Assembly (NCBI GenBank): GCA_016178055.1
Contig: JACOUC010000036.1
Span: 9 to 64,008 of the forward strand
Direction of reading: 5' to 3'
Source: Chlamydiota bacterium
GTDB lineage: Bacteria; Auribacterota; JACPWU01
Length of the DNA: 64,000 nucleotides
Part shown: positions 19,888 to 59,700 of the stretch, one piece after another
How the letters are laid out: every line of letters starts with the position of its first letter
Position numbering within the stretch: the first letter of the stretch is position 1
Translations under genes and position numbers: made by a program
Notes under the pieces: generated by a model
The model's database searches: none
What the model was told of the DNA's origin: nothing
The model's input: only the letters and a program-made list of their open reading frames with translations

Positions 19888-20069
19888 GACAACCCCTCTC
19901 GATCTTGAAAAAATCAATAATGACTGCAAGCTTACATAAGTAAAGACACTTTGGGGACTAGAAATGTAAAAATAAAAATTTAGAAATTTCCATCTCACAA
20001 TTGATAAAGGAAGGTTTCTTATAGAATAACCAGCTATTCCTTCAAGCCCTTACATAATGATTTCCTCTA

Positions 20070-33170: not shown

Positions 33171-33183
33171 CGATGAACAACGA

Positions 33184-34502: not shown

Positions 34503-34679
34503 TCAAATGTTTTCTAAATGAGAACTGGGAAATTCTTGGAGATAAAGTTCCGTGGCTTCTTTTAAGTTCGAAATGGCCTCTTCCAATGCAGAACCTTGAC
34601 TGACAGTTCCAACCTCTGGACATTCCGCAACGTAAAGATGATCTTCTTTATGAATAACTGCGCAAAAGGACTGAAACAT
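34503..34679 (-). CDS. HicB-like (UPF0150) antitoxin-family protein, 58 aa
   Basis: My own translation, since the ORF is below the track cutoff: MFQSFCAVIHKEDHLYVAECPEVGTVSQGSALEEAISNLKEATELYLQEFPSSHLENI. AGGAG lies upstream. No hicA partner was seen. Confidence 0.65.
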   Translation of the reverse strand: MFQSFCAVIHKEDHLYVAECPEVGTVSQGSALEEAISNLKEATELYLQEFPSSHLENI

Positions 34680-34714
34680 TTTACTATAGCTCCTATATAT
34701 CTTTAATTTAAGTA

Positions 34715-34740
34715 TTGCGGAAATCTATTACGCTGCGGCG
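34715..34740. repeat. Duplicated copy of the ORF2 3' end and downstream sequence
   Basis: TTGCGGAAATCTATTACGCTGCGGCG compared with TGCGGGAATCTGTTACGCGGCGGCGG at 35551..35577. On the minus strand both read GCNGCNGCG-TAA-YAGATTYCCGCA. Confidence 0.7.
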
Positions 34741-34768
34741 TCAGAGAGTGTTAAGAGTTATAAGGTGA

Positions 34769-35215
34769 TTAAATAAACTTTTTTTTGAGTTTTTTTAAGA
34801 AATCTTCGATTTCACCCTGTTGCATTCTTTGATGATCAATCAAGGCACAATCAATGGCCTCAATTAAACTATTTTTTTCAGAGTAGTTTAGAACTAATTC
34901 ATGAACTACCTTGTCAAGCAGTGGAAGCTCTTCTCTTAAGACAGACCAAACAATATCGATATCAATCCCAAAATATTCATGCGTAATTTTATTTCTAAAG
35001 TCTACTATTGGGCGATATTGTTCATTCAAAATTTTATATCGAATCAAATTACCAATCGCTTCCCCTATCACTTGTAGTTCTCTCAAAACTGCATCGTATG
35101 ACCTAAAATCTCGCAAGAGCTCTTGCTTGGAGAAAAAACTGCGAACAAGGTGATTTACCTTATAAATAGCCACTAAAACATCAACAATATAATGTTCCAC
35201 ATCACGCTTAGGCAT
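34769..35215 (-). CDS. HepT/DUF86-family toxin (nucleotidyltransferase substrate-binding protein-like)
   Basis: The RNKITHEYFGIDIDIVW (RxxxHxY) motif. It overlaps the upstream MNT gene by 8 nt. Confidence 0.8.
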   Translation of the reverse strand: MPKRDVEHYIVDVLVAIYKVNHLVRSFFSKQELLRDFRSYDAVLRELQVIGEAIGNLIRYKILNEQYRPIVDFRNKITHEYFGIDIDIVWSVLREELPLLDKVVHELVLNYSEKNSLIEAIDCALIDHQRMQQGEIEDFLKKLKKKFI

Positions 35216-35498
35216 AAATCACATCTTTTTGAATACGACGGCGAATAAATTCTTTTAAGGAAGACTCAAGTCCAAGATCGACCTTTTTTTTGAAAGAAGA
35301 TTCAAGAAAATGGTTCAAATTAAAAAAACTCCTGAATTTATTTGGACTTACAATATCGACAAGAATATCAATATCACTCTCCTCACGAGCCTCATTTCGT
35401 GCGTAGCTCCCAAACAAACCGATGCTGACGACCCCAAAGTTTGTCTTAAGCTCTGCTTTATGTCTTTGAAGAAAATGGAGAATTTCGTCACGTGTCAT
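35208..35498 (-). CDS. MNT-type nucleotidyltransferase antitoxin
   Basis: The GLFGSYARNEAREESDIDILVD (GSxxRGx...DxD) motif. Confidence 0.85.
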   Translation of the reverse strand: MTRDEILHFLQRHKAELKTNFGVVSIGLFGSYARNEAREESDIDILVDIVSPNKFRSFFNLNHFLESSFKKKVDLGLESSLKEFIRRRIQKDVIYA

Positions 35499-35550
35499 AA
35501 ATATATTTATTTAAGTATAGCGTATTTTTAAAGTTGATGGTCACAAAAAA

Positions 35551-35577
35551 TGCGGGAATCTGTTACGCGGCGGCGGC
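35551..35577. repeat. Original copy of the repeat at the ORF2 stop codon
   Basis: See 34715..34740. The two copies bracket the MNT-HepT pair. Confidence 0.7.
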
Positions 35578-38500
35578 GGCGAGTTCTGAGATGGCTTTGA
35601 GGTTGTTGCGAGTGATTTCGTCAGAAAGGTTTTTGCGTTCGATATGAATAGTTTTATTTTCTCTAAATTGTTGTGCAAGATTCGGGTCAATTTTCCCAAT
35701 CATTTCTAACACCTCGGGACTGACAGAATCTACCTGAATATTGATTTCATCATTGCTTAAGAGAATGATGTTAAGATCTTTCGAAATCAAACCTTCATAG
35801 AGACTACGATGTTCCATATGAACGATAAATTGAAAGTCTTTTTTCTCCAGTGCTTCTAATCCATATCCAGGTTTGGCAAGTTCAGCCTTAATAAAGTTGA
35901 ACAGTGCCTCACCCGCTAGGTCCTTACTTTCAGGAGTAAGTAATAAGACACTTCTATTGTTTTCCTCTCCTGTTATGCTAAGCAAGCTGTCAAACTCTGG
36001 CCCCAATGCACTCTTTAAAGAATCCTTTTTAATCTGATCATGATTCATGAGCACAATTTTAAATCCCTTATTATTTTTCATCTTCTGAGCAGCTTCTTTC
36101 AAAATCTCAATATAAAAATCCGCCTCAGGTCGCTTGACTCCCTTTGCATCGACCAAATTAGCTAAATCAAAATCAACGACGCCTTTTCCTTTACCAAACG
36201 ACTCGCGGCTGTTCACAAAGAGATTTAAGAAAGCTTTTGTTGCAACACGAAGATGATTGGGTAGCACTCGTATGTTTTTCAGCTCCTCGTCCTTCCATCG
36301 ATCAATCTGTTCAGATTTGGTTTTTAAACTTAGCTTTTCAGCATCCGTCATTTCATATTGATCAATTTTGGATTTGAAAGTGCTCGAAGGCTCTAATCCA
36401 TTCAGCTCTTCTCCACTGGCAAGTTTCATCTCAAGCTGCAATCTCCAACCAGCCTCGGCTGCAACGCCCGAGCGATGGGCATTAAGGCTCGAGGCTCGAG
36501 GCTCGAGGCTCGAGGTAGAAGACTTTTTCAGGCCAAACTCCCTATCTTCATGATTAAAAATATCATCAACAACATCTTTAAAGTGAATCCGCCCATCAAA
36601 AAGGGTTACCGTCGCGGCTTCAATCAAATATTCAATGGGGATGACTGACCAGCGAACGCCATCCACATCTACCGTGACAGAAGAAGCAGTAGAGACGACT
36701 CCATCTGCATCCGTCGTTGTGAAATAATAGGGATGCCGCCCCCTATCTGGCGAGTCGTTGCGACTTGCAAAAATAATGTTGCGGTCTGTAAACCATTCTT
36801 TGATCTGAGCATCGGTCAACGCCATTCCCCTAACGCTTAAACTATTCTTTAAACGCTCCACATATCCATCAGGTCCCGATTGACGATGTTTAACCTGCTC
36901 ATAAATATCTTGGGCATTTTCTTCAGAAAAATGACCGGACCCAATGGTGCGGGAGGTGATAGAAGAGGGCATCGCTGGAGCTATCGCAAGTGGATCCATA
37001 AGGCTCTGAACCTGAACAGTCTTATCATCCGAACCCTTGCTTCGAATGTTTAAGTTTGGTTGGGTCCTGTCGTCTAAGATATCTATCCCTTCTGCCTGCT
37101 CAACCAGGACGCGTGGAACATCTCTCACAGGAACCCTTGAAATCACTCTTCCCATCTGCGAGTCACTGAGGGGATCAGAGATTCCATCCGTCATTTCAAG
37201 TAGCCAAGACCCTGATGGAACCTCTTCTGCTACAACGACTATTGGAAAATATAGATGATTGGCAATCAGGCTATTCACCACCCTGTTTCTTCTCTGCCAC
37301 AGTTGCTCAGGAGTATATCGATTGAAGTCACTTGGAATGAGATGTTCCCACTTCTCAAAATCACCCTCCTGCTCCACAGTAGAATAAAAGGGCTGCAAGG
37401 TCCATATCAAACGTATTTTTTTTGCCCTTCGGGCATCGTAAATAAGAAGTGACGAAGAGGTTGTCACTGGATAATTGTCTATCGTTAAAGGTAAAAGTTT
37501 TGTCTTAGGCCTTCGTAAATAGACCCGAGAATCGCCCGCATTAATGGTATAGACCATATAGGTTCCGTCTTTTTTTGGGATCACAAGAGACACGGCTGCT
37601 GTTGTCCCCATTCTATTGATCGGAAAAAGTTTTAAAAAAATATTCCAATCCTTTCCGTAGAAGAAAGATTCCAACTCATTAATCCGCGCCTCAGATCGAG
37701 ATACTGCATCAAAAGCCTCTAATATACCCCTTTGATTATCGCGAAAATGTTTCCTTAAAGATTCGACATCACCCTGGGTCGTTGACCCTCTCTTCATCTC
37801 CTCGACCCATTCGGGTGTAAAAATTGACGGCTCAGAAGAAAAGGATTTTCTCAAAACTCTTTTGATCTGATTGCGATCATGGGCGCTTAAGGGGATGCGC
37901 AACACACGAGAGATGATGTTATCTAAGTAGGACTCGATCATCGATTCCGGCACTTCTTCTAAGATCATATAAGGATTTGGAACTTGGCTCATCTTCTCTA
38001 TGACAGAGTGGGCCCTTTTAAAAGAGCGAGCAAGGATTGTATAAACCTGATCTTCATCCGAGGCCTCCTCTAATTCCTCGGAAAGGATAGAGGAAATCAC
38101 AATCTTGGCAAGGGTACTGGCGACCTGCCCTCCAGGACGACCTCCCACGCCATCCAAAACGCCCGATACCCTCCAGCCATTCCTTAAAACCATCGCAAAT
38201 CGATTGTCCTCATTTCGATCCGGATGCGCACTGGAAGCCTTTGTCAGATGTGAAAACACAGTGGCTTCAACCCTCCATCGGTCGACATCCTGTGCTAAAC
38301 TCTCAAGGGAAGCTTGATCATTATGAGAAATGTTTGGATCATTGCGGATTTCGAGAATCAATTTTTCAGAGGGCGCTAAACCTTGTAAATATTTCTGGTC
38401 GCTTCTCTTCCTAGCCAGCAAAAGATCATGATGGATGCGCTCACCCTTTGAGGCACGGTATTCAGCGGCGACACCCACACGATGGGCTTGTTGACGAAGG

Positions 38501-41500
38501 TCAATAGACAACTGGTCGATTCGACTGACTCCCACTTTCTTCATTAGCTCAAGCAATCTTTGATATTCACTTCCTTCATGGGTCACAATGCCACTCACCA
38601 CTCTATCAATGTCTGTATCAAGCTCGCCAGAGGGTTCAAGATAATCGACGGTGATGAGGGTGTAAAGCTGGTTATTCGCCACAAAACTGATGGATGGACT
38701 GCGGGCTCCGATGATATTGGTAAGATAGTGAGAATCTCTTTGACGATCACCTCCCGGCATTTCTCGTAAGTCGCTTAACCGAACATAAAGAACTTGCACG
38801 TTTTGGGCCAATGCCGTTTGATCTATCTCTTCGAGATCGAGGCCCCACTGGGCACACTGATCACGCGTGTTTGTTTGAGTCGTTTTAATTCGATTTACAA
38901 AATCCGTCACACTCAAACTCGTCACATCCGAAAGCTGAATATCCGGGTGATTTCCAACGACATGGGAGTTAAAGCTTCCAGAACCTCCTGAAGTTTCAGT
39001 GTCCCATCCTTCCATACCCATTAGACCCCACTCACCCTGTCCAGTAAAGCTCATATCTCCTCCTGCCGATAAGAAGCTGGCCATGCTGGATTCTTCCGCC
39101 TTCAGCTTTTCACCAAGGCTAATAATCTCGAGCAACTTTTCTCTCGCTTCCTCAAAATCCATTCTGTTTTTTGCTGGATTCAAAACTTTTTGAGTTTCTC
39201 CATCAACAACCACCGAGGAACGATTTGCCGCAAGCTCGTTATGTAATCCCTTCTTTACCCACTCGATCCACAATTTCCACATTTCTCCCTCTCCTCGACC
39301 CAGAGGCCTGTTATCTTCCAAAATATTCAGATTAGGCTGTGCAAACAATTTTCTTAAAAACACATTCACTGTTTTTCTAAATGCTGGATATTGTTGAACA
39401 AGTACTCTCAAACCTCCATGAACTCCTTTTAAAAATTGGTTTGCATTTATCCACGAAATTTCTTCTTCTTGAATATCTTGATCAGAAAAAGGATCTTTTC
39501 CATGACTCAAAACATGAAAAATCATAACAGCCATGCCATATAAATCAGAACGTCTTAAAGGATCTGGATCACTGACATCAACCGGTTCTAAATGTTGCTG
39601 AAACATCTGTGTTAATAACTTTTCCGGTGATAAATAAGAGGAACTGCCTGATACTTGTCCTCCATCTTTAGAAAGGTCATCTGTTTTAGACCTTGCAAGT
39701 CCAAAATCGATCAATTGGGTCTGAAGCGTTATCGGATCTACGATCACATTATCTTCTTTAACATCATGATGATTGACATCACCGTCTTGAACTCCTTGTA
39801 AGGAGTTCAGAAAATTCAGCGATACGCGAGCCAGTTTGATCATGTCGTCCACCGAAAAAGCCCCAGATGATGGAAAATCCTTCACCCAATCATCGAAGGT
39901 CACCCCTTCTACCCATTCCATCGCAATAAAAAAGGACTTTTTCTCTTTTTTCTCTACACCTGAAACGAAAGTTCCTTCTCCAAAATCATAAATTGCTGCA
40001 ACATCTTTACGATGAATTTTGGCTTGAAGTTCAGCCTCCCTCTTAAAGAAAGGTAATTTGTCTTGATCCAATGCCTCTTTAATCAGAACGCGTCTGCCAT
40101 TCTCATCCTCTGCAATCCAAATCCTTCCCATTCCGCCTTGGGCAAGGTAGCCAACAATGTCATAACGATTTTCGAGCCTTGACCCCATATAGGGATATTC
40201 TGATAATTGCTTGCCTTCTAATTTACGAATAGCATCTTGGGCTTCTCCAATCGATAAATCTATACTTGCAATTATATTCTTATGATCAGTGATACGACTT
40301 TTATAGATATTCTTATCTAATCCATTTAAGAAACTCTCAGAAAAAGAAGCAATTCGTTTTATATCTTTAGTAATCTCCCATTTTTCCAACCTTGTAAGCA
40401 TAGTATTCAAGGAGCCTGTGAATGCGGCAGTAAAGGCATCAAAATTTAAAATGACGGTTTTTGGAGAAGTTGTAAGTGTCTGTAAAATAAACTCACAAGA
40501 TTGCTCAAAGGAATCCAATGTTCTTGGAGTTTGAACACTGTTTAAGTTTTCAAGACCTGCAATTAGAGCAATATAGGCATTGGCTAAATGAAGCTGGCTT
40601 TCAAGAGAGGCACCTCCTCTTTGAAGGGATTCAAGATTATTTCTGACCTCTGGTAAAAGAGGAGAAACAAGAGGATTCGTCGAATGATAACTCAAAAGGG
40701 CTTCGATCTTCCACTCATCTACTTGATTGGCTAAGCCCTCAAGATCTTTTGCACCTGTTGGAAGCTTAAGTTGAGAAGCAGGTTTCAGAGATTGAAGATA
40801 TTGAATATTTCCTGTCTTGGCAGCAAGGAGGATGTCCCAATGAATTCTTTCGCCATGAGTCTGAGCAAATTCTGTTCTGACACCCGTCTGATGGGCTTCT
40901 CTTCTAAGCGATTCAGGAAGAGCAGCTATCGTGTCTACCTGAGCTTCACCCATCCTCTCTATCAGCTCTTGATATTCCGACCTCTCATGAACGACAATAC
41001 CTCGGGCAGTTTTTTGAACATCTAAGCTTTCATCAGGCTTATCTTTTAAATAATCCACACTGATCACCGTGTAAAGCTGACCATTCACCACAAAACTGAT
41101 GGAGGAGCTTCTGCTCTTACCCGTTGAATCCGTGAAATAATGAAGATCTTGAGAACTGATCCGGCCAGGAAGGCCATTTAGAGTTGTGAAGAGAATATGA
41201 TGGGTTGGGTCCCCTGCTGTGACTGTCTCTAAAGACTGAGCATCAAGACCAAACTTGCTACATGCTTTTCGCATCTCCTCTTGCATACCTTCTAGCTGCT
41301 CAACAAATTGAGTATCTGTAAGGGTAGTTAAATCAGAAAGTTGAATGTCCTTATTTTCTCCAATGGTGTGGGATTGGAAAATTGGAGTAACTCCAGAAGC
41401 AGAAACAAGTGCTTCCCAACGGTATTGGGTGGGGAATGTCTGCCCTATTTGAGTGATGATAAGGGTTTGTCCATCTTGGCTTAAATTTAAGGAAAACTGA

Positions 41501-44500
41501 GGTGTTGAAATCTTTCTAGCGTTAGTATCATCTGGCAAGAGAAGATCCGATTCAGCAGTTTTTTTAGCGCGGCTTCCAACTGTGACGACTTTACCTTGTT
41601 CTAAGATAAAGTTTTCAACACCCGGCTGCCGGCCAGGGGCAAAAATCTTATCCCCCTTTTTAGGAAGAGAAAGGACAAACTGTCCTGAACGGTAATCTAT
41701 ATGTAATATCTCTTTATCAAAGCTTTCGGGTGCGCCAAGTTTTTTAACTAACCCTTTCACTCCTAAAACTAAGGTTCGGTTTGAGAAGTTGCCGGGTCCT
41801 ACCGGAAGACTGTCTCCGCTTTTCAATTCATTTATCCATTTTTCTGCTTCTACTTTGACAGCAGATTCAACGAATGGCGTGGGTGGTTTTTCTTCACCCC
41901 TAAATGAGGTTCGAGAACCCAAATGTTCTACTTCCAAGTCATCTTCAACTCTTTGGATTCTGACATGTTTTTCTGAAAGAGCTTGAAACAGACGGAGTAA
42001 AGTCTTATCATCCCTTCCTAAAATTTGGCCAGCAGTAAGATGATCCTTATTCCATTTACAAAGACTCGTAGAAGAAATTCCTTTCCCTTCAAAAGACAAA
42101 GCAACCCCTCCATCCAGTTGGAGTGAAACTCTGACTTCAATCGACTCCTCACTGCGTGCTCCAGGCACTCTAAGAATCAAATCTTTCTTTTCCAAAACAC
42201 TCATCGGAAAACGCAATAAAGGCCCCGGTTGATCCTTTGCAGTCTTTACTTCACCTAAGGGGGTATTTTCTAGAGGCAAATCTTTCAGTTCTAAAACTTT
42301 TCTTTGAGCTGAAGGCTGGACTGCAAGAGGAGCAAATTTTGAAGGCTGAATCACCTCTTCATAACCGGTCATGTCATCATCTTTTGCACGACCTCGTAAA
42401 GGATGTGTAGAACCTTTATTGGCAGATGTATCTCTAACTTCACGACTCTTTTGAATCAGAAGAAGAGGGGCCTCTCCAGGGGCTGTTTCATCCATGATTT
42501 TATCAATTGAATCGTGGATCGAACCGCCTGGAGTCTCGTCGGGTAAATTATCTCTCAGTCCATCGCACACCCCTATTAAGCGAGTGCCAGCCTTCACTCC
42601 CTCAGCTTTTACGATAACAGGAATACATTTCATACCCGGTGTTAGAGAAGTTCCGAGGGCGTTCCTGTTTTCAAAAACTTCTTTAGGGTTTCCTTGAAGA
42701 TTGCTAGGAAGCAAGTTCTCACAACGATCACAATCACGAAGACTTAGAACGGAGGCCAAGAAAAGTTGAGGGGTGTTTTTTCTAGCCTTATCAGCCTCAT
42801 CCAAAGAGATAGACCTGTTTCTTTGTTCTTCTGAAGGAATATAATTATCAATGGTCATCACACGTAATTTTTTACCGGGTTCCTTCAAATAAAAACCGGT
42901 ATCCCCTACATTAATCACGTAAATATTGGAAGTCCCATCAGATTGGGGAACAATGATCGAAGTTCCTCCCGCTGTTCCCATATTTGAAAGGGGGAAAAAC
43001 GCCTTCCAAAATGCTTCTATAGATTGATTCTCATTGATTGCCCGATCCATTTTCCTATTCATTTCCTTTACAAAATTTCCTATCAATTTTTTAGCATCAT
43101 CTTGTTTCAAATTAAGAAAAGTATTTGAAAACTGTTTTCCTACCTCTATAGTAAAGAATCTCTTCCAATCATTTAAAACAGAATCTTTTAAAGTAAGAAA
43201 ATTATATTGTTTATCTACATCCTGACCATATACAGATTTCAGATAACCCAGAACGGCGTTAGATAAAAGATTTTCAATTGAATAAGCAGCAAAATGACTC
43301 TTCATCACCCCACGAATTTCCGAGACATCAAATGAAAACTTCAAACGCCCCGGAAGCAAATTCAAAACTTTTTCTAAAAATGAATCCAAAAACTCATCCT
43401 CAAAAAGAGGACGGGGAAGACTTGCAACTAATTCAATCGCAAGTTGAGCTTTTTGATAAGCCTCACCCAAAATCGAAGGGATTTGCTCTTCTGAAGCATT
43501 TGAAATTTTTTGTTTAAGATATTCGCTCACGACAACTCTGGCAATGGTGCTGGCCACTTCTCCTCCTGCCGCCCCTCCCATTCCATCAAAGACGCCTCCT
43601 ACAATCATCTCATCCTTCAAAACAATTCTAAAATAACTGTCTTCATTTCGCCCCATGTGTGCATTTGCAGCGAGAGTCGCCATGCTATAGACTCCAGGTT
43701 CTCTCTTGACTTCAATCCCTATCTCCTCCTCTTCAAGTGAAAGTTGGCCCGGCTTATCCTCATAAGAAATCGTTAGACCTTCTCTATAGCCAATGAAAAG
43801 CTTCCCATCGCTAACACGAAGCGAAACACGACCGATCGGTGTGCCTCCGTTAACCGAAGGAAGGCGAATATTTCTAGTATTGGTATGAGGTCCTAAACTG
43901 CCCAAAAGAATTTTTTCTTCTAAAATATCAGTGGCTCTTGATCCCAAACTTACTTCCTCATCATTAGATCCGATCCGAGAAAAATTAAAATTCCCATCTT
44001 CGAGACTAACTTTCACAACAACCGAATTTCCTAAATCTGGCGAAGAACCCGTCCATGTCAGAAGAATATCCTGAGACTCTAGATCTGTCAGATTGATCTC
44101 TTCAAGTCCGGTAGAAGCTATAACATCAAAGTCATCAATGGCTTGATCTATGGTTTGAGTTCGTTGCTGTGGGTCTTTCTCAAGAAGTTTTCTCAACCAA
44201 TCGACCCATGGAGAAGGTAAATTCAGCAAGCGGGGATGATGAGGATTTTTCTCGAAAAAATCTACCGCAACAGTATTCGTTAAAACTTGCCGTTTTTGAC
44301 CTTCGTCAAGAAATGCCTCTGCCCCAAAAGGATTTTTGCCAGTCAAGGCCTCTAAAAAAAGAGTTCCCAGTGAAAATAAATCTGAAGAGAATCGAACGCG
44401 ATAGCCAGGGGCACTTTCAGAAATTTGATCTATATCTACAATCTCAGGGGCCATATAACCAAGCGTTCCAACTATGCGATGAATCTCTTCATTGACCGAA

Positions 44501-47500
44501 ACTGAGATTCCAAAATCTAAAAGGGTTATCCTTCCCGTCTCCTCATCATAAATGATATTTTCCGGCTTAAGATCAAGATGAACAATATTTGCCTGATGCA
44601 CCTTTTGAACAGCCAAGAGAATCCTCCTAAAACATAGCAGCATTCTCTGAATATCGGCCTCTTCCAGAGTCTCCTTAGCCCTAAACCTCTGAATGAAATC
44701 TTTCAGTTGTTTTCCAGATCCATACTCCATCGCAAAATAGTGACGTGTCCCCCCTGTCGTCGGATCTCGATAGGAACTCTTTTCTAACACCCTTGGGACA
44801 ATATTTTCACCTTCCGAAATTTTAACTACAGCCTCTTGCATCTCCATTTCACGATTTCTTGCCTGACCCTGACTCATAGCGGGTTCTTGATCTAATGGGA
44901 CTTTGACAACACACCGTGTTCCTGCGGAATAAGAGCCTTTTGGTTCATCTGATTCAAGAGGTTTAACTAATTCAACCTCGAAGACCTTGGCGATACTTGA
45001 ACTCACCAATAATCCAAGAATTTTGTACTTTTCTCCAAGCGGTGGCAAATTTTGTTCAGGAAAAGAAGCCATCCAATTTTCCGGGGCTGAATCTTTTAAA
45101 AATGGGAATAATTTTTGTTTCATCTGACGAGTTCGTTCAGGCCCCACAATAGAAACAACTCGATCGTAATCAAAATGATTTCTTCGCTCATAGGCTCTTT
45201 GAGCAACATTCTCAAAACCCTTCATGATATCGTTAAATGTCTTTTCGAAAATAGGTCTTAATGTTGAATCTAATGTGGCATTAGGACTTAACCGTCCTTG
45301 GGTTATATTAAATGCCCGTTGAAATTTAGCAATGGCAAAACCCGTTTGATTAAGCTCAAATTCCCTTAACCCTTCAAGAAAACTAACACTCGCTCGGGTA
45401 TAATCAAGCATGCACTCGTGTAATAAATCTAAGCTTTTATCTCGATCAGAGGATTTCTGTTTAATCGTAATCCCTGGAGTTTTTTCCCAAAATTTCTTTA
45501 GGCTTTCCGATAACTGCATCGCACTAGATTTATCACCCCTTTCAAGAGCTTCGCGAACGACCTGATCGTGCCTCTGAACAAGCCCTATCAATCGCGTGTA
45601 TGTACTCTGAAATTGAGTCGGATCTTTAAGAAGGTTATTCCACAAAAGTTCACAGGCTTTCGCATCATCTTGCGTTTGAAGAGCGGCTTCAACCGAATCT
45701 TGTCCCCTTGCTGAGGGGGAATTACGCGGCGGCGCAAGGGCCGCCATCGAAGCCAGAGGAAGGATCTTAAGAAAATCACTGACCCCTCGTGGCACCCATG
45801 AAGGGAGTCTTCCCTCTCGAGCCCGTAAAATAAGACGGTTATATATCGAGTGAATCAACGCAAGACCGATAGAAGCACTGACTAAAGGTGCCACAGGTGC
45901 ACTAAAAATAAATATAGCTACATCATAAATTCCAAGATAAAAAATGGAAAAGTAGACATAGACGACAAAATAGTTTAAAAATTCTCTTTTAAACGCATCC
46001 CCAAAATTTCGATAGCGCTGATCGCTGGGCAAGCGATAGCGATCGATCATCCACAGCACAATCACATGTCCAGCCGAAAAAAGAAACCCGCTCACGAAAA
46101 ATGCAGTCAAAGCCAAAGGCGCCTGCAAAGAGAAATAATCCACACTTCCATGCACTAAAGACCAAAAGAGACCCGTTTCAAGAATGGGTGCTACCCACGT
46201 GATCAGGATCCTTCCCCAGAAGGTCTTTGATGGCTTGATCAGAAATCGCTCACGAAGACTAAGAGCTGCCTCGCTCACTTCTTGACCGTTACGAATATAA
46301 GTTCTGCCAGACTCATGCGCGGACATCCAGGCTGTATCTTCAATAAAAACTGGAATCTCTTTAAACTCCCTTTTATAGAACTCTTTCAATAGTTCTAGAG
46401 CAATCTCACGAATTTTTTTAGAATCACGGCCTGCTGCCTCCCAAATTTGACCTGAAACTGCAAGTAGTTTTTCCTTTTGTTTCTCTCTATCCAGGTTTCT
46501 CATTGCTTCAGGCTCTGGTATGATGATCTGTGTTCCTGTCGGCGAAGAAAGTTTTTTTGCAAACTCCTTGAACAAGTGATGAATGGCCTGGGCATGTCCC
46601 TTTTCAATTTGGGGTATGGCCATAGTACCAGTGTCTAAACCGCCTTGCTGACGAACTTGCTCTTTTACCTCTTCAACCTTTTTCCAATATTCAAAAAGCT
46701 CTGTTTCAAAAAATCTCATAACGTTGATTTCATCCGGGATGGCCGCTAAAGAACCCAGGTAAGCCGTGTATTCATCGTTAGGGCGTGAAAGCCCCTTGTT
46801 CAACAAGTCTGCCAACTCATTCAATTTATGAATCGCTTCATGATAAACGGTGGATAATGTCAAGCGCTCGTCTCTCCCCTCTTTAAGAAGAACATAAACC
46901 TCATCCTGCTTGCTCGGAGCAAAACATCTGTAATTATCCTTATTCGTATAATCTGGTCTGACAAAGGCAACCCGAAATTCTGAATAGGGCTCAAGATGAA
47001 TCGGGATATAAGAGTCTAGGCGGCCCAAAAGAACGATGTCGGACGGGTGGGCATAAAAGACAAGATGATAGGGCTTGAAGAATTGTCTTAAGAATTCAGC
47101 GGCTTGTGTATAATTCCAGCTCTTTTGAAGAACGGCTCCCACAGATTCCACAAGTTTGGGATTTTTCCTTTTCATGTCACTGATCCAGGTCTGATATTCA
47201 CCACCATCCGCCTGAAGCTTGCCTTGAAAGAATTTCAATAACATTGAATAAATCCCTTCTGCTTGAGGCTGGGTATAGGTTGGTCTGAAAGATTCACCCT
47301 TTAGAAGAACCTCCCCATAAACCTTCAGGCTTGTCTCAAACCAATCAAATACAAATATTTCACCATCCTTTCCGTCAAAGAACAATTTCCTCAACTGGCT
47401 GTGAGCACTTCGATCTTGGCTAAAAAAAGCGCTTTTATCTTGAGAAGAAACCTCAACATTCGAAACGTACTCATTCACCTGACGTGTGAGAAAGGTTGAA

Positions 47501-50500
47501 TTGTCAACGATGCTCCAACTATTTTCTTTAATCAAAGAGCCCCAGGCCAGCACATGAGCCATTCGAATAATATTGGGGCGGCCTTTCTCCATAAAGGATG
47601 GAGGAATTTTTGCTTGTAACTCCAAATCTTGCGGCAATGTCCAACGCAGCTTGTGATACCAAGCGGCTTTCAGCTTTTCAAACTGAAGCGCCTCGGCACG
47701 TTCGGACTCATTAAGACTCTGATCCATAAAGATGTAATAAACAGGATTTTGTCCATCACTACTTTCAACAGGCAAGAGATAGGCCCCTGTAAAAGATTTT
47801 AGATGCTGGCCGATGACATCACTTTCATTCTGACTGTCATAATTAAAAATACGACAAGTGATGGCTTCATTATTAATGGTTTCCGTTGTCACCTCTCCCT
47901 GTGTGGAAATAGGCAATTCAACTGTTTTCTCTAGGTTAATGGTTTTCCCAAGACGGAGCGCTACCCTTTGCCCCTGAATCTGTTGCGCTTTGATTAGAAT
48001 CACTCCATCACCCTCTTTCCCCAAACTATCTCCCTCGCTCCAAATATTCTTACGAGCGCCGCCACCGGTGATATTGGGCGGATTAATCGAGGGAACTCGC
48101 AGAAGAGCGGGGGCTAAACTTCCACTGCTTAAGAGGCTTAGGCTCAAAATGACACCGCTCATTCTTCGGGCAAGAATTCCATGCTGCCTCAACCAATTCC
48201 AAACGGGATAGAGCCAATTCATCCTTCCTTTAAGTTCTCTTCTCGCCTCATCTCTAAACCTTTCTTCATAGGTATGAATAGAATCTATCGAAAGAATCGG
48301 ATAGCGATATTTTTGCAAAAGAGGATTGATGAGCCCAGACAATTGATTTTGATAATTAATTCTTGCTTGAATATTTTCGGCCTTAAATGCACTTTCAACA
48401 AATCCTGCCAATTCAGTCCCATTCATCTCTAATATTTTCAAACGGCTTAATTGAGTCAATCCTTCAGGTGTTTGACCCGCTTCAAGGTAGGATTGAACTT
48501 GATGGGCAATGATTGTGGCTAGAATAAGAGCTTTATCAGTATTGGGATGATCCCGCTCATCAGCATCAAAACGCTCCTCTACACCCGGAAGAGCAAGTAG
48601 CTGTGTTTTTAATTGAGAGTCCCTTTCACCCAAAGCAGCTAAAATAATCTGAATGATTTGCCATTCTCCACTTTCATGTCTCAAAACTTCGTCAAATGCT
48701 TGACTTGGCTTCCCCTGACTGCAAAGATCTTGCCTTACCTGAATAGCAAGGGCTGTAGCAGTGCCCTCATGCCCTCCATGATGGCCTCTTGGAAAATTTT
48801 TCAGAGAAAGAGAAGGTTCTACTGCTTGATCCGTTACAGGATTTAAAATGGGCTGACCTGACCATACAAGAGAAGGCGAAACTTTATCAGTCACAGATCC
48901 AGATGCAGCCAAGGAAAGTGGAAGAGCTGAGTCATCACCCGGATAGCCCACAAATGGTTCCCGTCTCATAGATCCGACTAGAGGTATTTCACCTAAAGAT
49001 GGAGCAACAACCGCAGGCACACTCGCAAGTCTAGGCAAGAGCCCAAGCCGAGATTGAGTCGGAGGTTGAAGCTCACGCATGGCCGTGGGTAAAAGGCCTT
49101 GATAAATATTTAGAATGATTTCTCTAGAAAGATCTACCATTGCTTGAGCAATTTGTTCAGCTGAAATTTGTTGTTCTCGTCCTGGAGGGCCACGAACACC
49201 TGCAAGTTTATTTAACAAAACAGGAGGAGCTCTTCCCGAAGAGGGTTCTACCCATTTTTGAAGTTCTAGAGCAACAGCCTCACGTGATTTAAGAATACCC
49301 TTTACATATAACGCCTTCTTTGCGAGTGCATGAAGTGTTTCCATTCCTGGGCCTGAGAGACCTGCCTTCAATCCTGCATCACGAATTCGAGCCATATATT
49401 TGGCAGTCTTCATTAAAGTTTGGATCGGATCCCCCTGATACGACTCTCTCTGGTGCTCAAATTTACCTAAGAGCTCAGTCATGGAATGAAGGTAACGCAA
49501 GGGCGTCATATCGATGAATTCAATTCTCTCACCCTCTTTCTGCATTTGATTGACCACATGGAAAATAGCCCCTGTAGAATAGTGAGGATCTTTCTCGAAA
49601 AGACGGACTTCCATGGAGAGGCTTAACAACTGAACTCTCTGGGACATACTCAGCGGTATAATATTTTCTTGAGTGACGACATTATTTTCTTCCTTGAAAC
49701 GAGCTAATCTCTCAAGCTTCCTTCGTAAAATTCGACGTCTGGCTTCTTCTTCCCGCAATCCCTCTGGAATTGTTGGATCCAAATTTGAGATTTCAGCGGC
49801 AAGCTGCCCTTGTACTTTTCCATAGTAGGCCTCGGCTTGTGCCAAAAAATCTTGCAAGGAAGGAATTTCCTTTAAAGACTTCCACATTTCATGGGAAGGA
49901 CCCCCCCCATCGATCAAAAAAGCAGTATAGGCGACCTGAGTCTCCAATAGCAATGCCTGTTGACGACGAAGAGAATCTTCTTGGCGAGAGATATCGATGA
50001 TCAAGGGGTCTCCATAAGAATTTGCATCGAAAACCTGATAAGAAGAATCTTGAAAGCCCGCCTCTTTCCAAACATCATCAAAGGCCATCAAAATCCGCTC
50101 GGACCCTTCATTGAGAATGCTGAGGTCATAATCACTCCCCATTCCAACTGAACCTGTAGAGTTTAAACGGACTTCTCGGAAATTTTTGATTTTTGAATGA
50201 ACTTTAATCCAAGAATAATTCTGATGAGCCCTTTCTTCCGCCTTCATTAAAAGGGTATCCACAACCGCCTTTCTCTGTCGTTCAAAAGCCTTTTGAAGTT
50301 CTTCAGAAAGATTAAATTCTTTCACCCATGCACGAATCTGATCCCAATCTTGCACCTCTTTAAAAAAGGCAAGAAAACGCTCATCCACCCCCTCATCGGT
50401 GACTTGGGAAAGTCCATTTCCAACAGAAGATAAAAGCTTTTGAAGAGGAAGAGGAAGCGGCTGATGAATCCTCTGGATAATATTTCCTTTATAAAAATCA

Positions 50501-53500
50501 AAGTCATAGGTCAAAAGATTTCCCTTTCGATCGGTAGAAGTAAAAAAAGTTTCTTTCAAAACGCCCAGGGCATCGCGAAAATAAGTTTCTGCCTCTACTC
50601 CAAACTTCTGAAGTAATTCTGAGCTCCGCGAAAGATTTTTTAAGAGATATTCCAACTCCTTTGAATTCATCATGTACCATGAACCCGCAATGGCGACCAC
50701 CTCATGGGGATTTTGTTTCCAATGAGACCGGTCTCCCTCTTTATCTTCTCTAAGTTGGCTGAAAGAAATACCTGCCTGACGAAGTTGAATCGCTCGAGCC
50801 TCAAGAAAACCAAATAGATCATCCCCTTTTGTCTCTTTAAATTGAGCGATTTCCTCATCTATTTGGAAAACATCGCCTGTTAGCTGGATCATATCTTTTT
50901 TGTTCAACAAATTCATATATTCATAAAGATCCGAACTCACATAAACCACCTCTTCTCCTCGTTCCTGACGAACCCAACCGTCTGGTTGCAATGATCTAAA
51001 GCCCTCAATACTGAGGGAAGCAAGCTGATCCATTGTAAACCTGCTCCCTGCATCATCAATATAAGCGGTAAACCCCGAAGCCTTACTCATACGAATCCAA
51101 CGATCAACAGAGAAGAGAGGCGTTTTTTCACGATTTGAGCCCGTCGAGAGTTTGTGACACAGCTCATGAAAAAATGTGACCGCCATCGGCTCACTTGTTC
51201 TTTGTTGCTCTAACAGTTGAAAATTAAGTGAAAGGGAAAGAACCGTTTGAGCAAGCCGAGCTACCCCCAGTGAAGACATTCCTCTTTCCGCACCTGAAAA
51301 AGCAATAAAGGTACGATAGGCATCCGTCATGGGGCGGGGAAGAAAACTGACGGCCTCTTCCATTTCTTTTATGAAAGACTCTGGAATGGGTGCCTCAATC
51401 GCAATGTTACGTGCTCGAGCCTCAAGGTGGAGCAAAACTAGATGATATAAAATAGATGATTTCCACTCTGCTTCTCTTCCCAGGACAAAATTTCTTTGGA
51501 GATATGAAAGCAAATTTTGTCCTTCCCGATCTATGCCTCTTTCCTCTTTTTTATATTTTTGAAAGAGAAAATCATTAAAAAGATGGCTAACCATATGATT
51601 GAGAATTGCATCCCCAACATCCGGAATGTAGGATAGTGCGATCATCAAAGCCCCTATCTCATCTTGGGTCAGCTCAAGTCCGCCAAGAGGATTTTGGAAA
51701 GTGCGGTCAAACACGGAAAGATGAACCGTCCTGGTTTCAAGACAATTTGATACAAATAGGACCAGTTGATCCTTAAGCTCAGGTCGTATAGGTAAAGGCC
51801 TCAGCTTTTGTTTGAAGCTCTCTAATTCAGGCCTTTCTACAACCGTTTGTCCCCCCAAAACTTCCAGTTTCACCGTTTCAGCTATATCAAGTCTGCGAGG
51901 CTCAACCGAAGGAACCAATATCGCTGAATCCCCTTCCACAGAACGGGCCGGCATAGATGTAAAAATACCGCTGGGTTTAAAAGCAATGGAAACTGGAACA
52001 ACCTCGCGTACAGTAGAATCATGTTTTCCATTAATACCCTCAACAATTGTGGCTGTACTCGTAAGAGCTTGCTTCAAAGCACTTATTTTATCCTTTATGT
52101 TTAAATATGAACCATTTAAAAAATTAATCACTTCCTTCAAAGCAGGGGTCACCACAGCAACATTTGCTTGGTAAAAACGAAGAGCGGCCTCTAAATCAGA
52201 ATAGCTATAATGTACCGCCAAATAAGCAGCAACTTTCTTTACAGAATCAAGGTCCCCTTCTTCGAGAAGAGGAAGCTGTTTATTTAACCCAACTTCTTTG
52301 CCGTCTCTAACATAGACACGAGACAATTCATGAGCCCTCATCCAGCTTGTATCCTCTACAAAATCTGGGACATACCCAAGTCCTTTTTCATCCCTGTAAA
52401 ACTCTTTCATGAGTTCCAAAGCAATATCATGAATCTTGTTGGAATCCTGGCCTAAATCTAGCCAAATTTTTTGCGAGATAGCCTTTAATTTTTCCTTTTG
52501 TTCACTCCTAGACAACCCCTGCAAATCAATAAACTTAGGAATAACAATTGGAATTGCGGTCCTTGCAGAAACTTTTTTGGCAAATTCTTTGAATAAATGA
52601 TGAATGGCCTTGGAATGCCCCCCTTTATCGTCGCTTTCAACAGCCAAAGTGTTTGAAGTTGATTCACCTCGTCCACGCGCTTGGGCTTTAGCTAATTCGG
52701 CCTCTTCCCAATAGCCAAAAAGCTCTGTCTCAAAAAAACGCTTCACATTGACTTCATCAGGAATGGCAATCAAGGAGGCAACGTAAGCCGTATATTCATC
52801 ATCAGCAAAACTCAATTTAAAATGTGGATTTATCTTTTTTAATAAAGCATTAAAATTATGCAAAGCTTCATGATAACCTGTGGAAAGTCTTAAGCGCTCA
52901 AGTTCTTCACTAGAAAGTTCCCGCCGACTCTCGCTATCCTGCAATAGAACATAAACTTCATCATTTATTCCCGGAATTTTAAAACCTCGGGCATTTCCTC
53001 GATTATCGTAATCTGGATGAACAAAAAGGATACGAAATGGGGGATGAAGACCTAAACTGATCGGAATGTATGAATCTAGGCGACCGAGCAAGATCGAACC
53101 ATAAGCTCTTCTACTCTGGAAAACAAAATGGTAGGGTTTAAAAAATTCCCTTAAAAATTCTGCGGCGGCAGCATAGCCCTGTCCTTTTTTGAGGATAATT
53201 TCAATATTTTTAAAAAGCTCTGTATCTCTATTTTTGGGGGAAAAGCTTACTTCTATTGAAGGATTTCCACTTTGAAGAGATACTCGAAAGCGGTTGTAAA
53301 TTTCTTCAACCTCTGCCTGTGTGTAGGACAACGGTTTTTCTACAGAGGATAGTGAATAAGGGCTCTTATTCTTTCCAAGATGCCTTACAATCAAATGACC
53401 CTGACTATCCTTCTTTAATGAAAGATGAAAACGAGATATCAGACTTTCAGAATCCTTAATAACTAAATTGAGACTCTTCGGAGAGCTTCCAGCAAATGGC

Positions 53501-56500
53501 GAACTTCCAACCCGTAATTCTTGATCACCAACCTGAATGACGCTCTCACCAGAAACCACAATGAATTGACCCTTTGCTGAATCATATGTAATAGTAATAG
53601 GCGCCTCTGAATAACCTGCGAGTTTGACCTGTAAAATTTTTCCAGATAAGAGATCAGGTGAAATGCGGTAGAATTCTCCTTTCTTCCAAACTCCTTCTTC
53701 CAGCGATATAGATTGTGAAAATCTGATTAAGGCTTCTTCCTTCCATTGATCTATTTTTTGGGCCAGCTCACCAAGGACATCCGCATATTTAACAGGCAAA
53801 CCTTGCTGGACATATTCTTTAATCTTTGATTTATATTCACGAGCACTTTTGAGATTGTCTAAATAAGCCCAATCGCCTCGTTGAGTTGCACTGAAAATTT
53901 CATAACGAATTCTTTCTCCTTGAGAAGCTCTATATTCTGCAACCACCCCAACTCGATGCGCATGAAGTTGAACTTTAGAATCCTTAGATTGTTTGGCCAA
54001 ATTTTCTTTTGTCTCATGGAGAGCGACACCTCTGATCATTTTCATGATATCAAAATCAAGGGCTCTCGCTTCTTTCAAAGACTCTAGGCTCATCACCGTA
54101 TAAAGTTTTCCATCCACTTCAAAACTGAGGGTCGAACTCTTGCCGCGCGAGCCTTCAAAGAAAACAGAAGTCGAATCTGTCCCCGAACGCAAAGCCCCCG
54201 GTAAATCTTTTAGAGAGGTAATAAAAATATTATTCTCTTTAAGCCAATCAGATTCATCTTTTTTCAAACCTAGTCCAGGGGAACTTCCATTCACCAAACC
54301 AATCTGTAAACGTTGAAGAACCATTACAAAATCTATCGAACTCAATGAAGTTAAATCCCCTAATGCCAATTCCTGATGCTCGCCCACCGGCTGAGCGGTG
54401 GAAAGAGGAATTATTTCCGCTACCGGAGGGCCACTGGCTTCGAGAGCAGCTATATTAACTTCTACCTCAGACAGCTGTAACCCCATAACCTGACTGGTTT
54501 TTCCATCGATTAAAAAAGTAGCGAGATTAATTATTAAATTTTTTCCGGGCAAACCTTCAAGAGGAATCGCACATAAAAGCTCGCTTCCTTGTAAAATGAA
54601 TTTTAAATTTTGAAGATCTAGAGAGAAATCTCGAAGAATAGCCCCTGGCGACGACCGATCTTGTTCGAGCGCAGTCGAGAACCCGCTCTTTCCCATAGCC
54701 TGAAGCCTTGCCCCAACAAAATCACCAAAAGATTGTGGACTGACAGCCGCATCAGTTGCTTTAAATTCAGCATAAAGACTTTTTAAAATGGTCGAAATCA
54801 ACTGAAGTTCATAGGCAATAATCGGAGCTCGGTCTTCGGGAAGGCCTTCAGCATTGGTCATGAGCCAATGCATGAGACTCTTCTGGCTCGAGGCTCGAGG
54901 CTGGAGGCTAGAGGAGGAAATAGGAAGAGATTCATTTTCTGCTTCTTCGGTTTGTTTTTTTTCTTTTGTTTCTGCCTCGAGCTTCGAGCCTCGAGCTTCG
55001 AGCCTAAGATTTTCCCCCACCCATTTCTCAAAAGGGGTCAGCTCCCCCATCATTACAGATTCATAGCGGTCCGCAGAAGATGCATTAAAATGAGGGATGA
55101 AGACAACATACGAGTAGCCCGCCTGTTTCAAGGCTTCCTTTAGAGCTGGAGTATGGAACCCCCCGGTCATCACGGCCCCGAAAGACTCATCAGACTCTTT
55201 CAAGCGATTTAACGCCCGAAGCGTCATTTCATGATCCCGTTCAAGCGTTGCTTCATAATAAGGTTCGATCTGGCTAAGCCGATCGGCCAAGGGATAATGG
55301 ATATCTTCAGCATGCTCTTCTACAGTGTAAGCCCCCGATTCATGCTGAATGAATTTTAAAATTTTTGGAATGAGCTTATCTTTTTTAGAAACGTATTCCT
55401 GATATTCAGATTTCTCAATGGAGAGATCTGTAAGGCGATCCAGAAGATTAATAAAGGATGAATAGAGGCATAAAGATTTTTCTTCCTCGGTCACACATTC
55501 AGCAAATAAGGTTTCAAAGGCAAGTTTTTGGATTTGTTCAAAGAGGAGGGCATCACTGACTTTTTGCACCGCTTCGAGATAGTTCATGTAGTTTTGGATA
55601 TTTGGATAAGAATTTGAAATGCTCGAGGCTCGAGGCTCGAGGATCGAAGCAGGCATAGAAAGCTCCATAAACCTCTTCACTGTCTGATAAAATTCTAAGG
55701 GGGCAATCTCATTCAAACGATACGATAAAGTCTGCTCTAAAAATTTGGCCATTTCCTCATCACTGGCCTTTCCGTTGACGGCGATGAGAAGCTTTCCCAT
55801 TTCATTGTGAATTTTCTTTAGATCAATATTTTTCTTGAAGGGAAGCGTTGCAAGATAAGGCTTAATCTCTGAAAAATTTTCAAGATTGATTTTTGCCTTT
55901 TCGCTCTCCCTCATGAGACTTCCCATAAAATGCTCTAAATCTATTTTGTAGGTAAGATAGTCATTCAATTCCCTTACAAAACTCTGAACTTCACCTGTAT
56001 AGACATAATCCGAAAACTGAGCCATTAAAATTTTTAATTTAGCAATATGCTCTTTCAATTCTTTGCGAAGAGAGACCGTATCCCGGTAGGCATGATAATT
56101 TTTTAAGTAGAGATGGATATCCTCAATCCCATAAAGTTGAAGAGGCTTTTCTCCATTGATCGCTTCAAACTCAGCACCCGTGAGCTGACCCAAATTGAGA
56201 TATTCCTCGGACACCTCTTTTAATATTTTTTTATCGGGGAAAGATCGAAAGCGTTGGGTCGAGAGCTCACCCGAGGCGGCTTCGATGTTGATCCTTTTAA
56301 GATTATATTTTTGAGCGAGATATTCTAAGAGGTCCACCGTATTTTTCTGAGCTTGAGGATGGGCATGAATATCCTGAAAGAGGAAAACGGTATGGCTTGA
56401 GTTCGGCGCTTGATACGTCTCGATCACCCGTCCCAGCTCTGTCGGAATAAAAATAGAGGAAGAATTTTCAAGAGAAGAAATGGACGCCGCTTCTTTAGCC

Positions 56501-56701: not shown

Positions 56702-59700
56702 CTACGCCTTTACCGCAGCCAAGTCATACATCTGACGCGTTGCTTTATATTTTTCCTCGTCTAATTCTTCTTTCTTAAGATGCACGCTATAGGTCTTCAC
56801 TCCTTGTCCCACCTCTTTTGCCTTAAACCGTTTTGCAAGCTCTGCATTCATTGCGCTCAATTTATCAAACATCGTTTGATCAAGCTGGATATCAATCGCA
56901 TCGCCCAGTATGAGTTGATTCAAAATTTTCGAGTAAATAGATTGATGGCTGGGGTCGATCACAACCTGAATATTTTGAACTTGTAATCCCATTAAACCCT
57001 TCGCCTCAGCCGCTTTTATAATATAATTTTCCATATTTTCAGGGCTTGCCTCTTCTCGAGTGGGTGCCTGCTCAAAAATAATTCCTTCATTTCTAAATCT
57101 CAACAAAACTTCGGCTCCAGGAATTTTCTTATCAACCAATGCCTGAAGGCCACCGATCTTACCTTCATGGTCAACCAATACTATTTTCATTTGGCCTTGA
57201 CTCTGACGCATCTGGGCCGCTGCTTTTACTAAAACTGCAATTGAAGCCTCAGCCCCAGGACGAGCGATATTATTACCATCCACAAGAGTCGAAAGATCGA
57301 TCAGCAAAAGCGCCGGAGCTCTATCCAGTGCCTCTGGTCTGTCCATAAAAAGTCCACGAACAACTCCCTCAAGCGCTTCAGCCTTAGACGCTTCAAAACG
57401 ATTCGCAGATGTTTTCCGGATTGACTTCTGAAGCAATGCAAATTGTTTAACCGAGGTCTCAAATTTTTCAATTTGGAATATGACATTATCCGGAGACTTT
57501 CCTAAGGCTGTTAATATCAAGGGTAAATATTGCTTAATAAATTCTCTCTGCTCAGCACGATCATCTCCAATCACAGCTTGAAGGGCATCTAGATCCATTT
57601 CTCGAATTTCATTCCAGAGAAATTCTACTTGAGTAATATCAGTCCAACCATTTTCAATGATTTGAAGGGCCCAGGCCAATATATGACTGACACGAGCAAG
57701 ATCTGGTAACTCCCCCAACCCCTCTTGAACCAAGAGGGGAGTCCCTCCTACTGAAGTCTCTCCCCTTTCTTTTAAGGGGGAGCTGGAGAGGTTACTCTCC
57801 ATCCAATTTTTAATAAATATTTCCATCTTTTCATGCTGAAGAGCAATTTTTTTATCTTGGGCATTCCTAGAAATAAATATATAGAGCTTGCCATCATTCC
57901 CATAGCAGTGATAGGCCCCGCCGACCGTCTTTAAAATATCTTTTAAACCTGGAAACAATTTTTCCAGATGAGGATCATTTTCATCATAGTTCACTTCCTG
58001 ATACGTTGTAACCCCTCTAACTCCCCTTAAACTAAGGGGAGAGCCCGTCTCCCTTCCCGATTCAAGAGTAGCCATCTCCCCTCTTGGTTCAAGAGGGGTT
58101 GGGCGAGTTACGTTCTTTAACTTACTTAAATAAGGGTCGCCATCATCAATTGTCACCGTCCGACTCTTACTAATTTTTTTTAGATTTACTGCAAATTCAA
58201 TCATCTTTAATTCCTTATCACGACTCAAACTCACTTGATGATGCACCAATTTCTTACGAGCTCCGCCGCTTCCTGGCGTACCAGAGCCCGGAGGTGTTTT
58301 GGAGCCTGAAATTCGGGCGAGCCATCGGACGAAGGGAGATTGCGCAAACGCTTCAACCTTAAGCCAAGAAATTCCTGCCAATGTTGTATAAATTAGACTT
58401 TTTCGAAAGGTTAATTCCTCTAATGCCCTTTCCCTGAACCTTGATTCATAAGCGTTTAACTCGTCCATATTAATCTGCATAGTTCGCATAGGTTCTGGCA
58501 TGCGCCTATTTAAAGTTTCTATGACCCGATGCTGAAGAGATGCCCGCATTTCAGACGTTTCTGCTTCAACTCTTTCGAGAAATGCAGTGTCTTTCTCCCT
58601 CATTTTTCTTTCATGAAGTAGTGTCAACCCTTGTTTTCCATATTTGATGACCTCTAAAGCCGCCGCCCCTATGTGAGCTGCAAGGACAGCGATGCTATAT
58701 TCACGAGTTTCTCCACTATATCTTGCTCTACGCTGGACAAGTCTCTCTTCTAAAATAGGCTCTAGTTCATCTATCAAATCTGGATTGCTTATAATCCACT
58801 GCATCAAGTGCCATTCTGAAATTTCATGAACACCCACTTCGTCACGTTCTTCCATTTTAAGGTTTCGACTCATCCAAATTTCAACACGATTCCTTTCAGC
58901 AACTTTAATCACCGCATCATTTCCTTGAAGTTTATCAGCAGGCACCAAATAACAGCTTAGTTCGGCATCTTCACCCAAAAAGTTTTTAATCTGTTTATAA
59001 GGAAAAGATGGAATTAAAAATGACTCGTACTTATTTGACTCTGCCGGCTCATGAAGTGAGGGAAGACCCATCTCACCCTGAGAAGAACGGCTTTGATCGG
59101 CCCTTTGACCCGTAGAAGTAGTTGTAGAAACTGCATGAGCAAGCGTACCAAAAGCACCCGCCACCTCTGGAGCCAAAACATCATCAACGATTTCGATGTC
59201 AGGTGAAATTTCCTCTGGTAAAACAATGTCTAATTGATCTAGGGCCTCTGAAGTCGACATTCTCTGTGTAACGTCCTTCGCGAGAAGTCCTCTGAAAAAA
59301 GTTTGAAGATCGGAATTCAATTTTGAAAAAGCTGCTTCATATTGTCCATCAAAGGGATCGACATTTGTCACCTTTTCACGCCCTTTTACTGCACGACCTT
59401 GCCCCGTGGGCACTTCTCTATCCATGACTCGAAAGGGACTTGTGTTTAAAAGGGACATATATAAAATAACCCCCAGTGCAAAAAGATCACTTTTAAAACT
59501 GAAATTGCCATCATAAGTTTCTGGAGACATATAGGTAAGAGAGCCAATAATGAATCCGGATCGAACCTTTATTTCAGGAGAACCCGCAGCCCCAAAATCG
59601 ATCAGGGTCATTTTGTTTGTTTTAGGATTATAAAAGAAGTTTGCAGGCTTAAGGTCTCGATGGACTAAATTTAGGCCATGAACTTCTTCCAAGGTTTTCA

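Follow-up and report, generated by a model that had tools for sequence, protein, structure and literature searches.

The window analysed here, 64,000 nucleotides of contig JACOUC010000036.1 (positions 9 to 64,008 of the forward strand), contains three giant open reading frames (ORFs), one of which, ORF2 (35563..56601, minus strand; 7,012 amino acids, aa), bears four copies of a module. The module is a domain for which no described family gives a match; its own family is very rare and unannotated. Its copies share two short motifs whose core residues are invariant, an H-E-x-x-E and an A-H...G-V-x-x-E motif, and judging by a structure model the module is probably a variant zincin-like metallohydrolase.

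Four copies of the module in ORF2

When copy 2 of the module was compared by BLASTP with the three giant ORFs, matches were obtained in ORF2 at aa 5877-6120 (40% identity, E 1e-52), aa 739-961 (32% identity, E 1e-28) and aa 6578-6774 (27% identity, E 6e-9). Hidden Markov models (HMMs) set the boundaries of the copies at aa 735-965, 5075-5310, 5876-6124 and 6547-6781, with scores of 250-360 bits that are circular in so far as the HMMs were made from the same copies. The copies and their principal elements are located as follows:

53707..54399, minus strand, copy 1 (aa 735-965), after the shared N-terminal domain, with HETKE and AHRVGVVAE
40630..41379, minus strand, copy 2 (aa 5075-5324), upstream of kinase 2; the copy on which the sequence-only reading had centred and the one that was modelled
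40975..40989, minus strand, H-E-R-S-E of copy 2 (aa 5205-5209), in the middle of predicted helix 121-146
40870..40896, minus strand, A-H-Q-T-G-V-R-T-E of copy 2 (aa 5236-5244), in predicted helix 156-174
38227..38973, minus strand, copy 3 (aa 5877-6125), between kinase 2 and PP2C 2
36259..36963, minus strand, copy 4 (aa 6547-6781), between PP2C 2 and the C-terminal domain common to ORF3
36488..36514, plus strand, CTCGAGG heptamer tract in copy 4, in frame as SSLEPRASS, in a length-variable loop between the HE and AH motifs

The sequence-only reading had reported at least four copies of about 190 aa in ORF2. BLASTP and HMMs both confirmed this number, and the coordinates given for ORF2 all fall inside the delimited copies, but the length had been underestimated and is actually about 230 aa. 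The motifs quoted at that time are present as written in copies 1-3, whereas copy 4 lacks the DIQLSD start. The tract said to split copy 4 does exist and consists of three CTCGAGG units.

Copies 2 and 3 are 41% identical to each other and copy 1 is 31-33% identical to both. Copy 4 shares 20-26% with copies 1-3 and is, by identity, slightly nearer to the copies of other organisms (28-33%). Having identities of 20-41%, the ORF2 copies are therefore old and diverged and neither recent tandem duplicates nor assembly artefacts. At every module start there is a (S/A)H(V/T)(V/I)G motif, which occurs nowhere else in these proteins. It was also considered as a possible cleavage site, a candidate that was not retained: looked for elsewhere in the giant proteins, it was found only at module starts.

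Rarity and conservation of the family

The claim of rarity is based on HMMER: a profile of the four copies, run exhaustively against 1.84 billion representative proteins, recovered four, ORF2 and three others termed P0002, P0003 and P0004; this count applies to the sensitivity of one profile round, and the clustering conceals relatives that share more than 50% identity with a representative. Each of the four is alone in its 90% cluster. The ORF2 protein is deposited as MBI1870667.1 and MBI3276470.1 (identical; NCBI name 'protein kinase [Chlamydiae bacterium]') and originates from a metagenome-assembled contig of 66,813 nt. The other members are:

P0002, 4,355 aa, with a single module copy and an Rce1-like region as its only Pfam match
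P0003, a fragment of 488 aa with no Pfam match
P0004, 3,021 aa, with a single module copy and no Pfam match, encoded on a contig of 56% guanine plus cytosine that carries three giant genes in tandem

P0004 also carries the N-terminal domain of ORF2, while the idea that P0003 and P0004 have the ORF2 C-terminal domain was not supported by BLASTP. A metagenome scan for the module returned a single contig from JGI, L001; this contig encodes the last 2,467 aa of P0002, with at least one residue different. The module was found in none of the 80 retrieved giant-protein loci of Omnitrophota and not in viral, plasmid and phage collections. Scanning GTDB genomes with patterns of the P0002-P0004 core disclosed no relative, these patterns being unable to match copies 1-3. 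A word-indexed homology search with alignments of four and seven copies gave nothing and missed even the family's own members, which reflects a limit of the index and not absence.

That no known family has this signature, as had been stated from the sequence, was borne out in Pfam, NCBIfam, PADLOC, PHROGs and PDB sequences. There was no match to the module in Pfam, NCBIfam and PDB sequences even at E values up to 10, none of the PADLOC-DB families matched, and PHROGs gave just single-member matches (E at least 0.006) to unnamed families. The expectation that the conserved residues stay conserved in homologs was likewise confirmed: the H-E and A-H..G..E residues do not vary in any of the three homologs that come from other organisms, P0002, P0003 and P0004 all keeping H-E-x-x-E and A-H-R-x-G-V-x-x-E. 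Overall identity among the seven copies is 20-43%, and thirteen positions are invariant in all of them (copy-2 numbering: H131, E132, E135, A162, H163, G166, V167, E170, G176, R178, L195, L198 and L213). The consensus reads ..I..HE..E ... AHR.GVA.E..G.RI ... LA..GD..YL..LKP ... L..A..VD.W..E. Since no described family matches and the motif residues are invariant, neither a well-known domain nor a loss of these residues in homologs was encountered, either of which would have spoken against the sequence-only reading.

Predicted structure of the module

Copy 2 was modelled with AlphaFold2 using either four or seven sequences. Four sequences gave a predicted local distance difference test (pLDDT) of 70.9 and a predicted template modelling score (pTM) of 0.72, seven sequences a pLDDT of 83.6 and a pTM of 0.84, with identical secondary structure. 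The following elements were predicted:

Residues 22-41 and 47-53, helices
Residues 60-65, 93-98 and 101-107, strands, followed by a short helix
Residues 121-146, helix with HExxE at 131-135
Residues 156-174, helix with AH at 162-163 and with E170
Three further helices, the last of which (residues 211-234) carries the VD.W..E motif

The predicted fold is confident and compact; it begins with a hairpin of helices at the N-terminus, continues with a small sheet of three beta-strands and ends in a helical bundle. Zincins combine a sheet, an active-site helix with HExxH and a following ligand helix. As the sheet, the HExxE helix and the AH...E helix of the model seem to follow this layout, the module may be read as a metal-dependent hydrolase, most probably a peptidase-like one. 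Helical periodicity and the zincin arrangement would place H131 and E135 on the same helical face (i, i+4), like the two His of HExxH, and E132 at the position of the catalytic base.

An HExxH on the active-site helix is not present; all seven copies have H-E-x-x-E, the second His being replaced by Glu. Candidates for a third metal ligand are H163 and E170, which follow the first His at distances of 32 and 39 residues, within the predicted helix that comes next. No profile match to a curated peptidase family was obtained. Since the site is unlike the defining HExxH, we have filed the module as zincin-like in its probable working and not as a demonstrated member of a zincin family. Regarding the metal or catalytic site that had been proposed from the invariant residues, their invariance holds in the three homologs, while metal binding or catalysis is plausible from the predicted fold. 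In the literature, no described HExxE peptidase family was found; matches to 'HEXXE' concern HExxH families (M35, CLCA1). For CLCA1, His156 and His160 are named as zinc ligands.

Looser signatures in the giant proteins

A fifth, degenerate copy had been postulated in ORF3. This could not be upheld, as the region has no HMM match and belongs to another module, termed module B, which is represented twice:

58385..58957, minus strand, ORF3 aa 1600-1790, the alleged degenerate copy, with just the HE..E / AH......E signature
48187..48804, minus strand, ORF2 aa 2600-2805, its module B paralog, with HESGEW ... AHQVQSYLE

Both members keep HE..EW and AH.....LE. They belong to a block of about 500 aa, by which ORF3 aa 1638-2142 (57329-58843) is homologous to ORF2 aa 2637-3131 (47209-48691; 24% identity, E 7e-12). 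Two sub-modules are contained in this block, with sites of the HE..E / (A/S)H type, and P0002 has a counterpart (IAHILA) of the second sub-module. The ORF3 region was not detected by either module HMM, even at E values up to 1000, and HMMs of the motif blocks missed module B, the ORF3 region included. An hhalign comparison of the module with the ORF3 region gave 0.3% probability (E 0.19), that single alignment being in register at the HE motif; probabilities for module B, for module C of the same block and for a canonical HExxH module of ORF2 were 0.1-0.4% each.

The HExxH module just mentioned is a second repeated module of ORF2 (52498-53226 and 46477-47163; aa 1126-1368 and 3147-3375). Its two copies are 49-52% identical, contain a canonical HExxH (YHEALH / YHEAIH) and a downstream DEYTAY, and look like zincins, with no Pfam match. 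No relation between this module and the HExxE module was detectable.

The three giant ORFs contain six occurrences of the pattern HE..E-x(10-60)-AH-x6-E, which was defined after the sequences had been seen, versus 0.008 expected. A similar site was observed in a giant ORF of Omnitrophota that belongs to the N-domain family (locus L016, CAZOWS010000226.1, aa ~760-850), where a beta-hairpin-like stretch is followed by HEVNE ... AHNLAFLIE. It shares the bare signature with the module, shows no HMM-level similarity to it and was missed by the motif-block HMMs. The bare HE..E...AH......E signature may be taken as a lead toward a wider superfamily, not as proof of one.

Genomic setting and host

The two other giant ORFs of the window are:

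3931..19998, minus strand, ORF1, 5,355 aa
56702..63754, minus strand, ORF3, 2,350 aa

Along ORF2, the following units were distinguished:

aa 1 to ~510, N-terminal domain, also in ORF1 and ORF3
aa 735-965, module copy 1
aa 1126-1368, canonical HExxH module
aa 2637-3131, modules B and C
aa ~2816, hydrophobic segment
aa 3147-3375, second HExxH module
aa 3465-3583, hydrophobic segments
aa ~3946-4153, kinase 1
aa ~4267-4700, PP2C 1
aa 5075-5324, module copy 2
aa ~5480-5713, kinase 2
aa 5877-6125, module copy 3
aa ~6126-6490, PP2C 2
aa 6547-6781, module copy 4
aa 6793-7012, C-terminal domain, also in ORF3

The N-terminal domain of about 500 aa (ORF1 aa ~37-790; ORF2 aa 1-514, 55060-56601; ORF3 aa 1-530; also in P0004) has the motifs QD(I/A)H and GG(F/Y)H(T/S) and no Pfam match. 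In GTDB species representatives it was found at 118 loci, nearly all of them in Omnitrophota and often several per genome. The nearest named relatives of the transketolase subunit encoded in the window come from two metagenome-assembled genomes (MAGs) labelled 'Chlamydiae' (75-77% identity), followed by many MAGs of Candidatus Omnitrophica/Omnitrophota (66-70%). On account of these relatives and of the N-domain distribution, the host is best described as an Omnitrophota-like bacterium of the Planctomycetes, Verrucomicrobia and Chlamydiae (PVC) group, which agrees with what has been published on long multi-enzyme proteins of Omnitrophota. The NCBI label is Chlamydiae/Chlamydiota, while a DUF1559 gene, the N-domain family and the transketolase homologs point to an Omnitrophota-like affinity. 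The shared N-domain, hydrophobic segments, kinase and PP2C units (ORF2) and M50, ClpB-like and GT4 units (ORF1) place the giant ORFs in the Omnitrophota-type class of giant multi-enzyme proteins. In ORF1, a membrane region of the M50 type (site-2 protease-like), a double AAA+ unit resembling ClpB and a GT4 glycosyltransferase are fused; the glycosyltransferase also matches the 'GT4-conflict' family.

ORF1 and ORF2 are separated by about 15 kb of ordinary genes (MqnC-like, UbiD, FHA-GAF-SpoIIE, glycogen debranching enzyme, TldD/PmbA, MqnA, DUF1559 protein and a split transketolase). The region 24611-35563 was compared with the two closest relatives (transketolase 75-77% identical), loci L084 (JACOUD010000035.1) and L086 (CAZXEQ010000005.1). 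Both keep the two transketolase genes as a pair, and L084 keeps the entire TldD-PDDEXK-PmbA-MqnA...transketolase block. After transketolase, both have DUF2203 and the nuo operon in place of the giant genes; ORF2 and ORF3 would accordingly seem to be accessory content that varies at this position. Small minus-strand ORFs between the transketolase gene and ORF2 (34503-35498) resemble, by eye, a toxin-antitoxin pair of the HepT/MNT type, with an R....H motif in RNKITHEY, and a HicB-like ORF; relatives have a HepT-like/NTP_transf_2 pair nearby.

Tandem CTCGAG(G/C) heptamers matching CTCGAGSCTCGAG with at most one mismatch were detected at 37 sites versus 0.03 expected. The tracts are spread over 8849-19557, 36488-55641 and 63041-63398; every site falls within one of the three giant ORFs, and the ordinary genes that separate these are free of them. 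Read in frame, the tracts give SSLEPRASS or LEARGSKLE, and in the N-domain alignment they appear as insertions relative to the homologs. They may represent either a repeat that inserts in frame or sequence prone to slippage.

Interpretation

The explanation that we favour, giving it somewhat less than an even chance, is a zincin-like metal-dependent hydrolase domain with an HExxE...H site, which may have a service role at junctions within giant multi-enzyme proteins. The module would be an independently folding domain of about 230 aa in giant membrane-anchored proteins of this Omnitrophota-like host. The first long helix of the bundle would present the invariant H-E-x-x-E at its centre and the next helix the invariant A-H-R-x-G-V-x-x-E (A-H-Q-T-G-V-R-T-E in copy 2). 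A zincin-like ancestry would mean that H (i) and E (i+4) take over from the pair of His in HExxH, E (i+1) from the catalytic base, and the His or Glu of the next helix from the third ligand. Along ORF2, the N-domain is followed by copy 1 and later by copy 2, kinase 2, copy 3, PP2C 2, copy 4 and the C-terminal domain. This position of the copies at junctions between enzymatic units, three of them bracketing kinase 2 and PP2C 2, suggests the service role, which might, as a weakly supported assignment, consist in cutting or maturing the giant polypeptide or in docking peptides; we favour an effector role less. Two observations weigh against a function of this kind, namely that kinase 1 and PP2C 1 are without a module, and that P0002 and P0004 have one copy each and no kinases. 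A bolder version, which we regard as quite improbable, is that the module founds a new HExxE metallopeptidase class acting in cis, which would cut the precursor at the junctions to release or activate kinases, phosphatases and other cargo, with module B (ORF2, ORF3) and the L016 sites as more diverged members of the superfamily.

The same residues might instead hold the fold or a structural ion and perform no chemistry. The module would then be a non-catalytic scaffold or interaction domain (a pseudo-enzyme or structural metal site) that spaces and orients the kinase, PP2C and other units or docks peptides and partners. One domain repeated four times in a single polypeptide beside unrelated neighbours, the replaced second His, and the long conserved C-terminal helix (L..LA..VD.W..E), which resembles an interaction surface, all agree with this; repeated scaffold domains are, moreover, common in Omnitrophota long proteins (10.64898/2026.06.07.730766). 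Yet five charged or polar residues (H-E-x-x-E and A-H...E) that are invariant at 20-43% identity are more typical of an active site, and the Glu beside the first His, a hallmark catalytic position, is kept in every copy. We consider the scaffold less likely than not, but a serious rival. Less probable still, though also a rival to be reckoned with, is an enzyme or metal-binding domain of a non-zincin fold, in which the likeness to zincins would be coincidental; examples would be a helical metal centre of the H-x3-E / H-x6-E kind, as in hemerythrin-like or di-iron-like domains, and a hydrolase of phospho-compounds or nucleic acids. That the module is no functional unit at all, but a leftover of internal duplication or an artefact of MAG-contig assembly, is highly improbable. 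The contig is metagenome-assembled and the giant ORFs contain slippage-prone heptamer tracts; against this stand copies that are merely 20-41% identical, an ORF of 21 kb that remains open and a confident predicted fold, and the same invariant residues in homologs of three independent assemblies (ENA/JGI, Logan, NCBI) effectively refute the artefact.

In Omnitrophota and related PVC bacteria, giant multi-enzyme proteins consist for the most part of sequence 'dark matter'. A conserved hydrolase-like domain repeated between enzymatic units provides a concrete, testable handle on their organisation and on the question whether they act intact or are cut. Should the HExxE site bind metal and be active, the range of zincin-type active sites would be widened; if the module is only a scaffold, it would be one more unremarkable entry among the uncharacterised domains, which are frequent in metagenomic giant proteins.

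Comparison with known systems

Among the closest known systems are the M48/M56 'minigluzincin' metallopeptidases (Ste24/ZMPSTE24, HtpX, BepA, BlaR1). The minimal zincin-like hydrolases of the YbeY / UPF0054 and Zincin_1 types (1oz9, 1xm5, 2ejq) align to the module core over about 70-85% of their length. YbeY is an RNase with an H-x3-H-x5-H site, whereas the module has a different motif and extra N- and C-terminal helices; the YbeY motif is not in the module alignment, and the sole link is weak fold similarity.

Processing peptidases embedded in large multi-domain proteins (the MARTX cysteine protease domain, the 'releasing peptidases' of polymorphic toxins and self-cleaving CLCA1, itself a zincin within a larger protein) offer a purely functional analogy to the module, a hydrolase-like domain that lies in a giant polypeptide beside cargo enzymes; there is no homology. 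Embedded peptidases have also been proposed to self-cleave giant Omnitrophota proteins (bioRxiv 10.1101/2023.11.21.568195). As a difference from these systems, several junctions are without a module, and cleavage within ORF2 is hypothetical. With 7 kilo-amino acids (kaa), ORF2 is below the 10-kaa and 30-kaa size classes of the Omnitrophota papers, and its repeated domain is no Pfam family. As in ORF2, domain repetition within one protein is described as usual among Omnitrophota long proteins and as ancient, not recent (10.64898/2026.06.07.730766).
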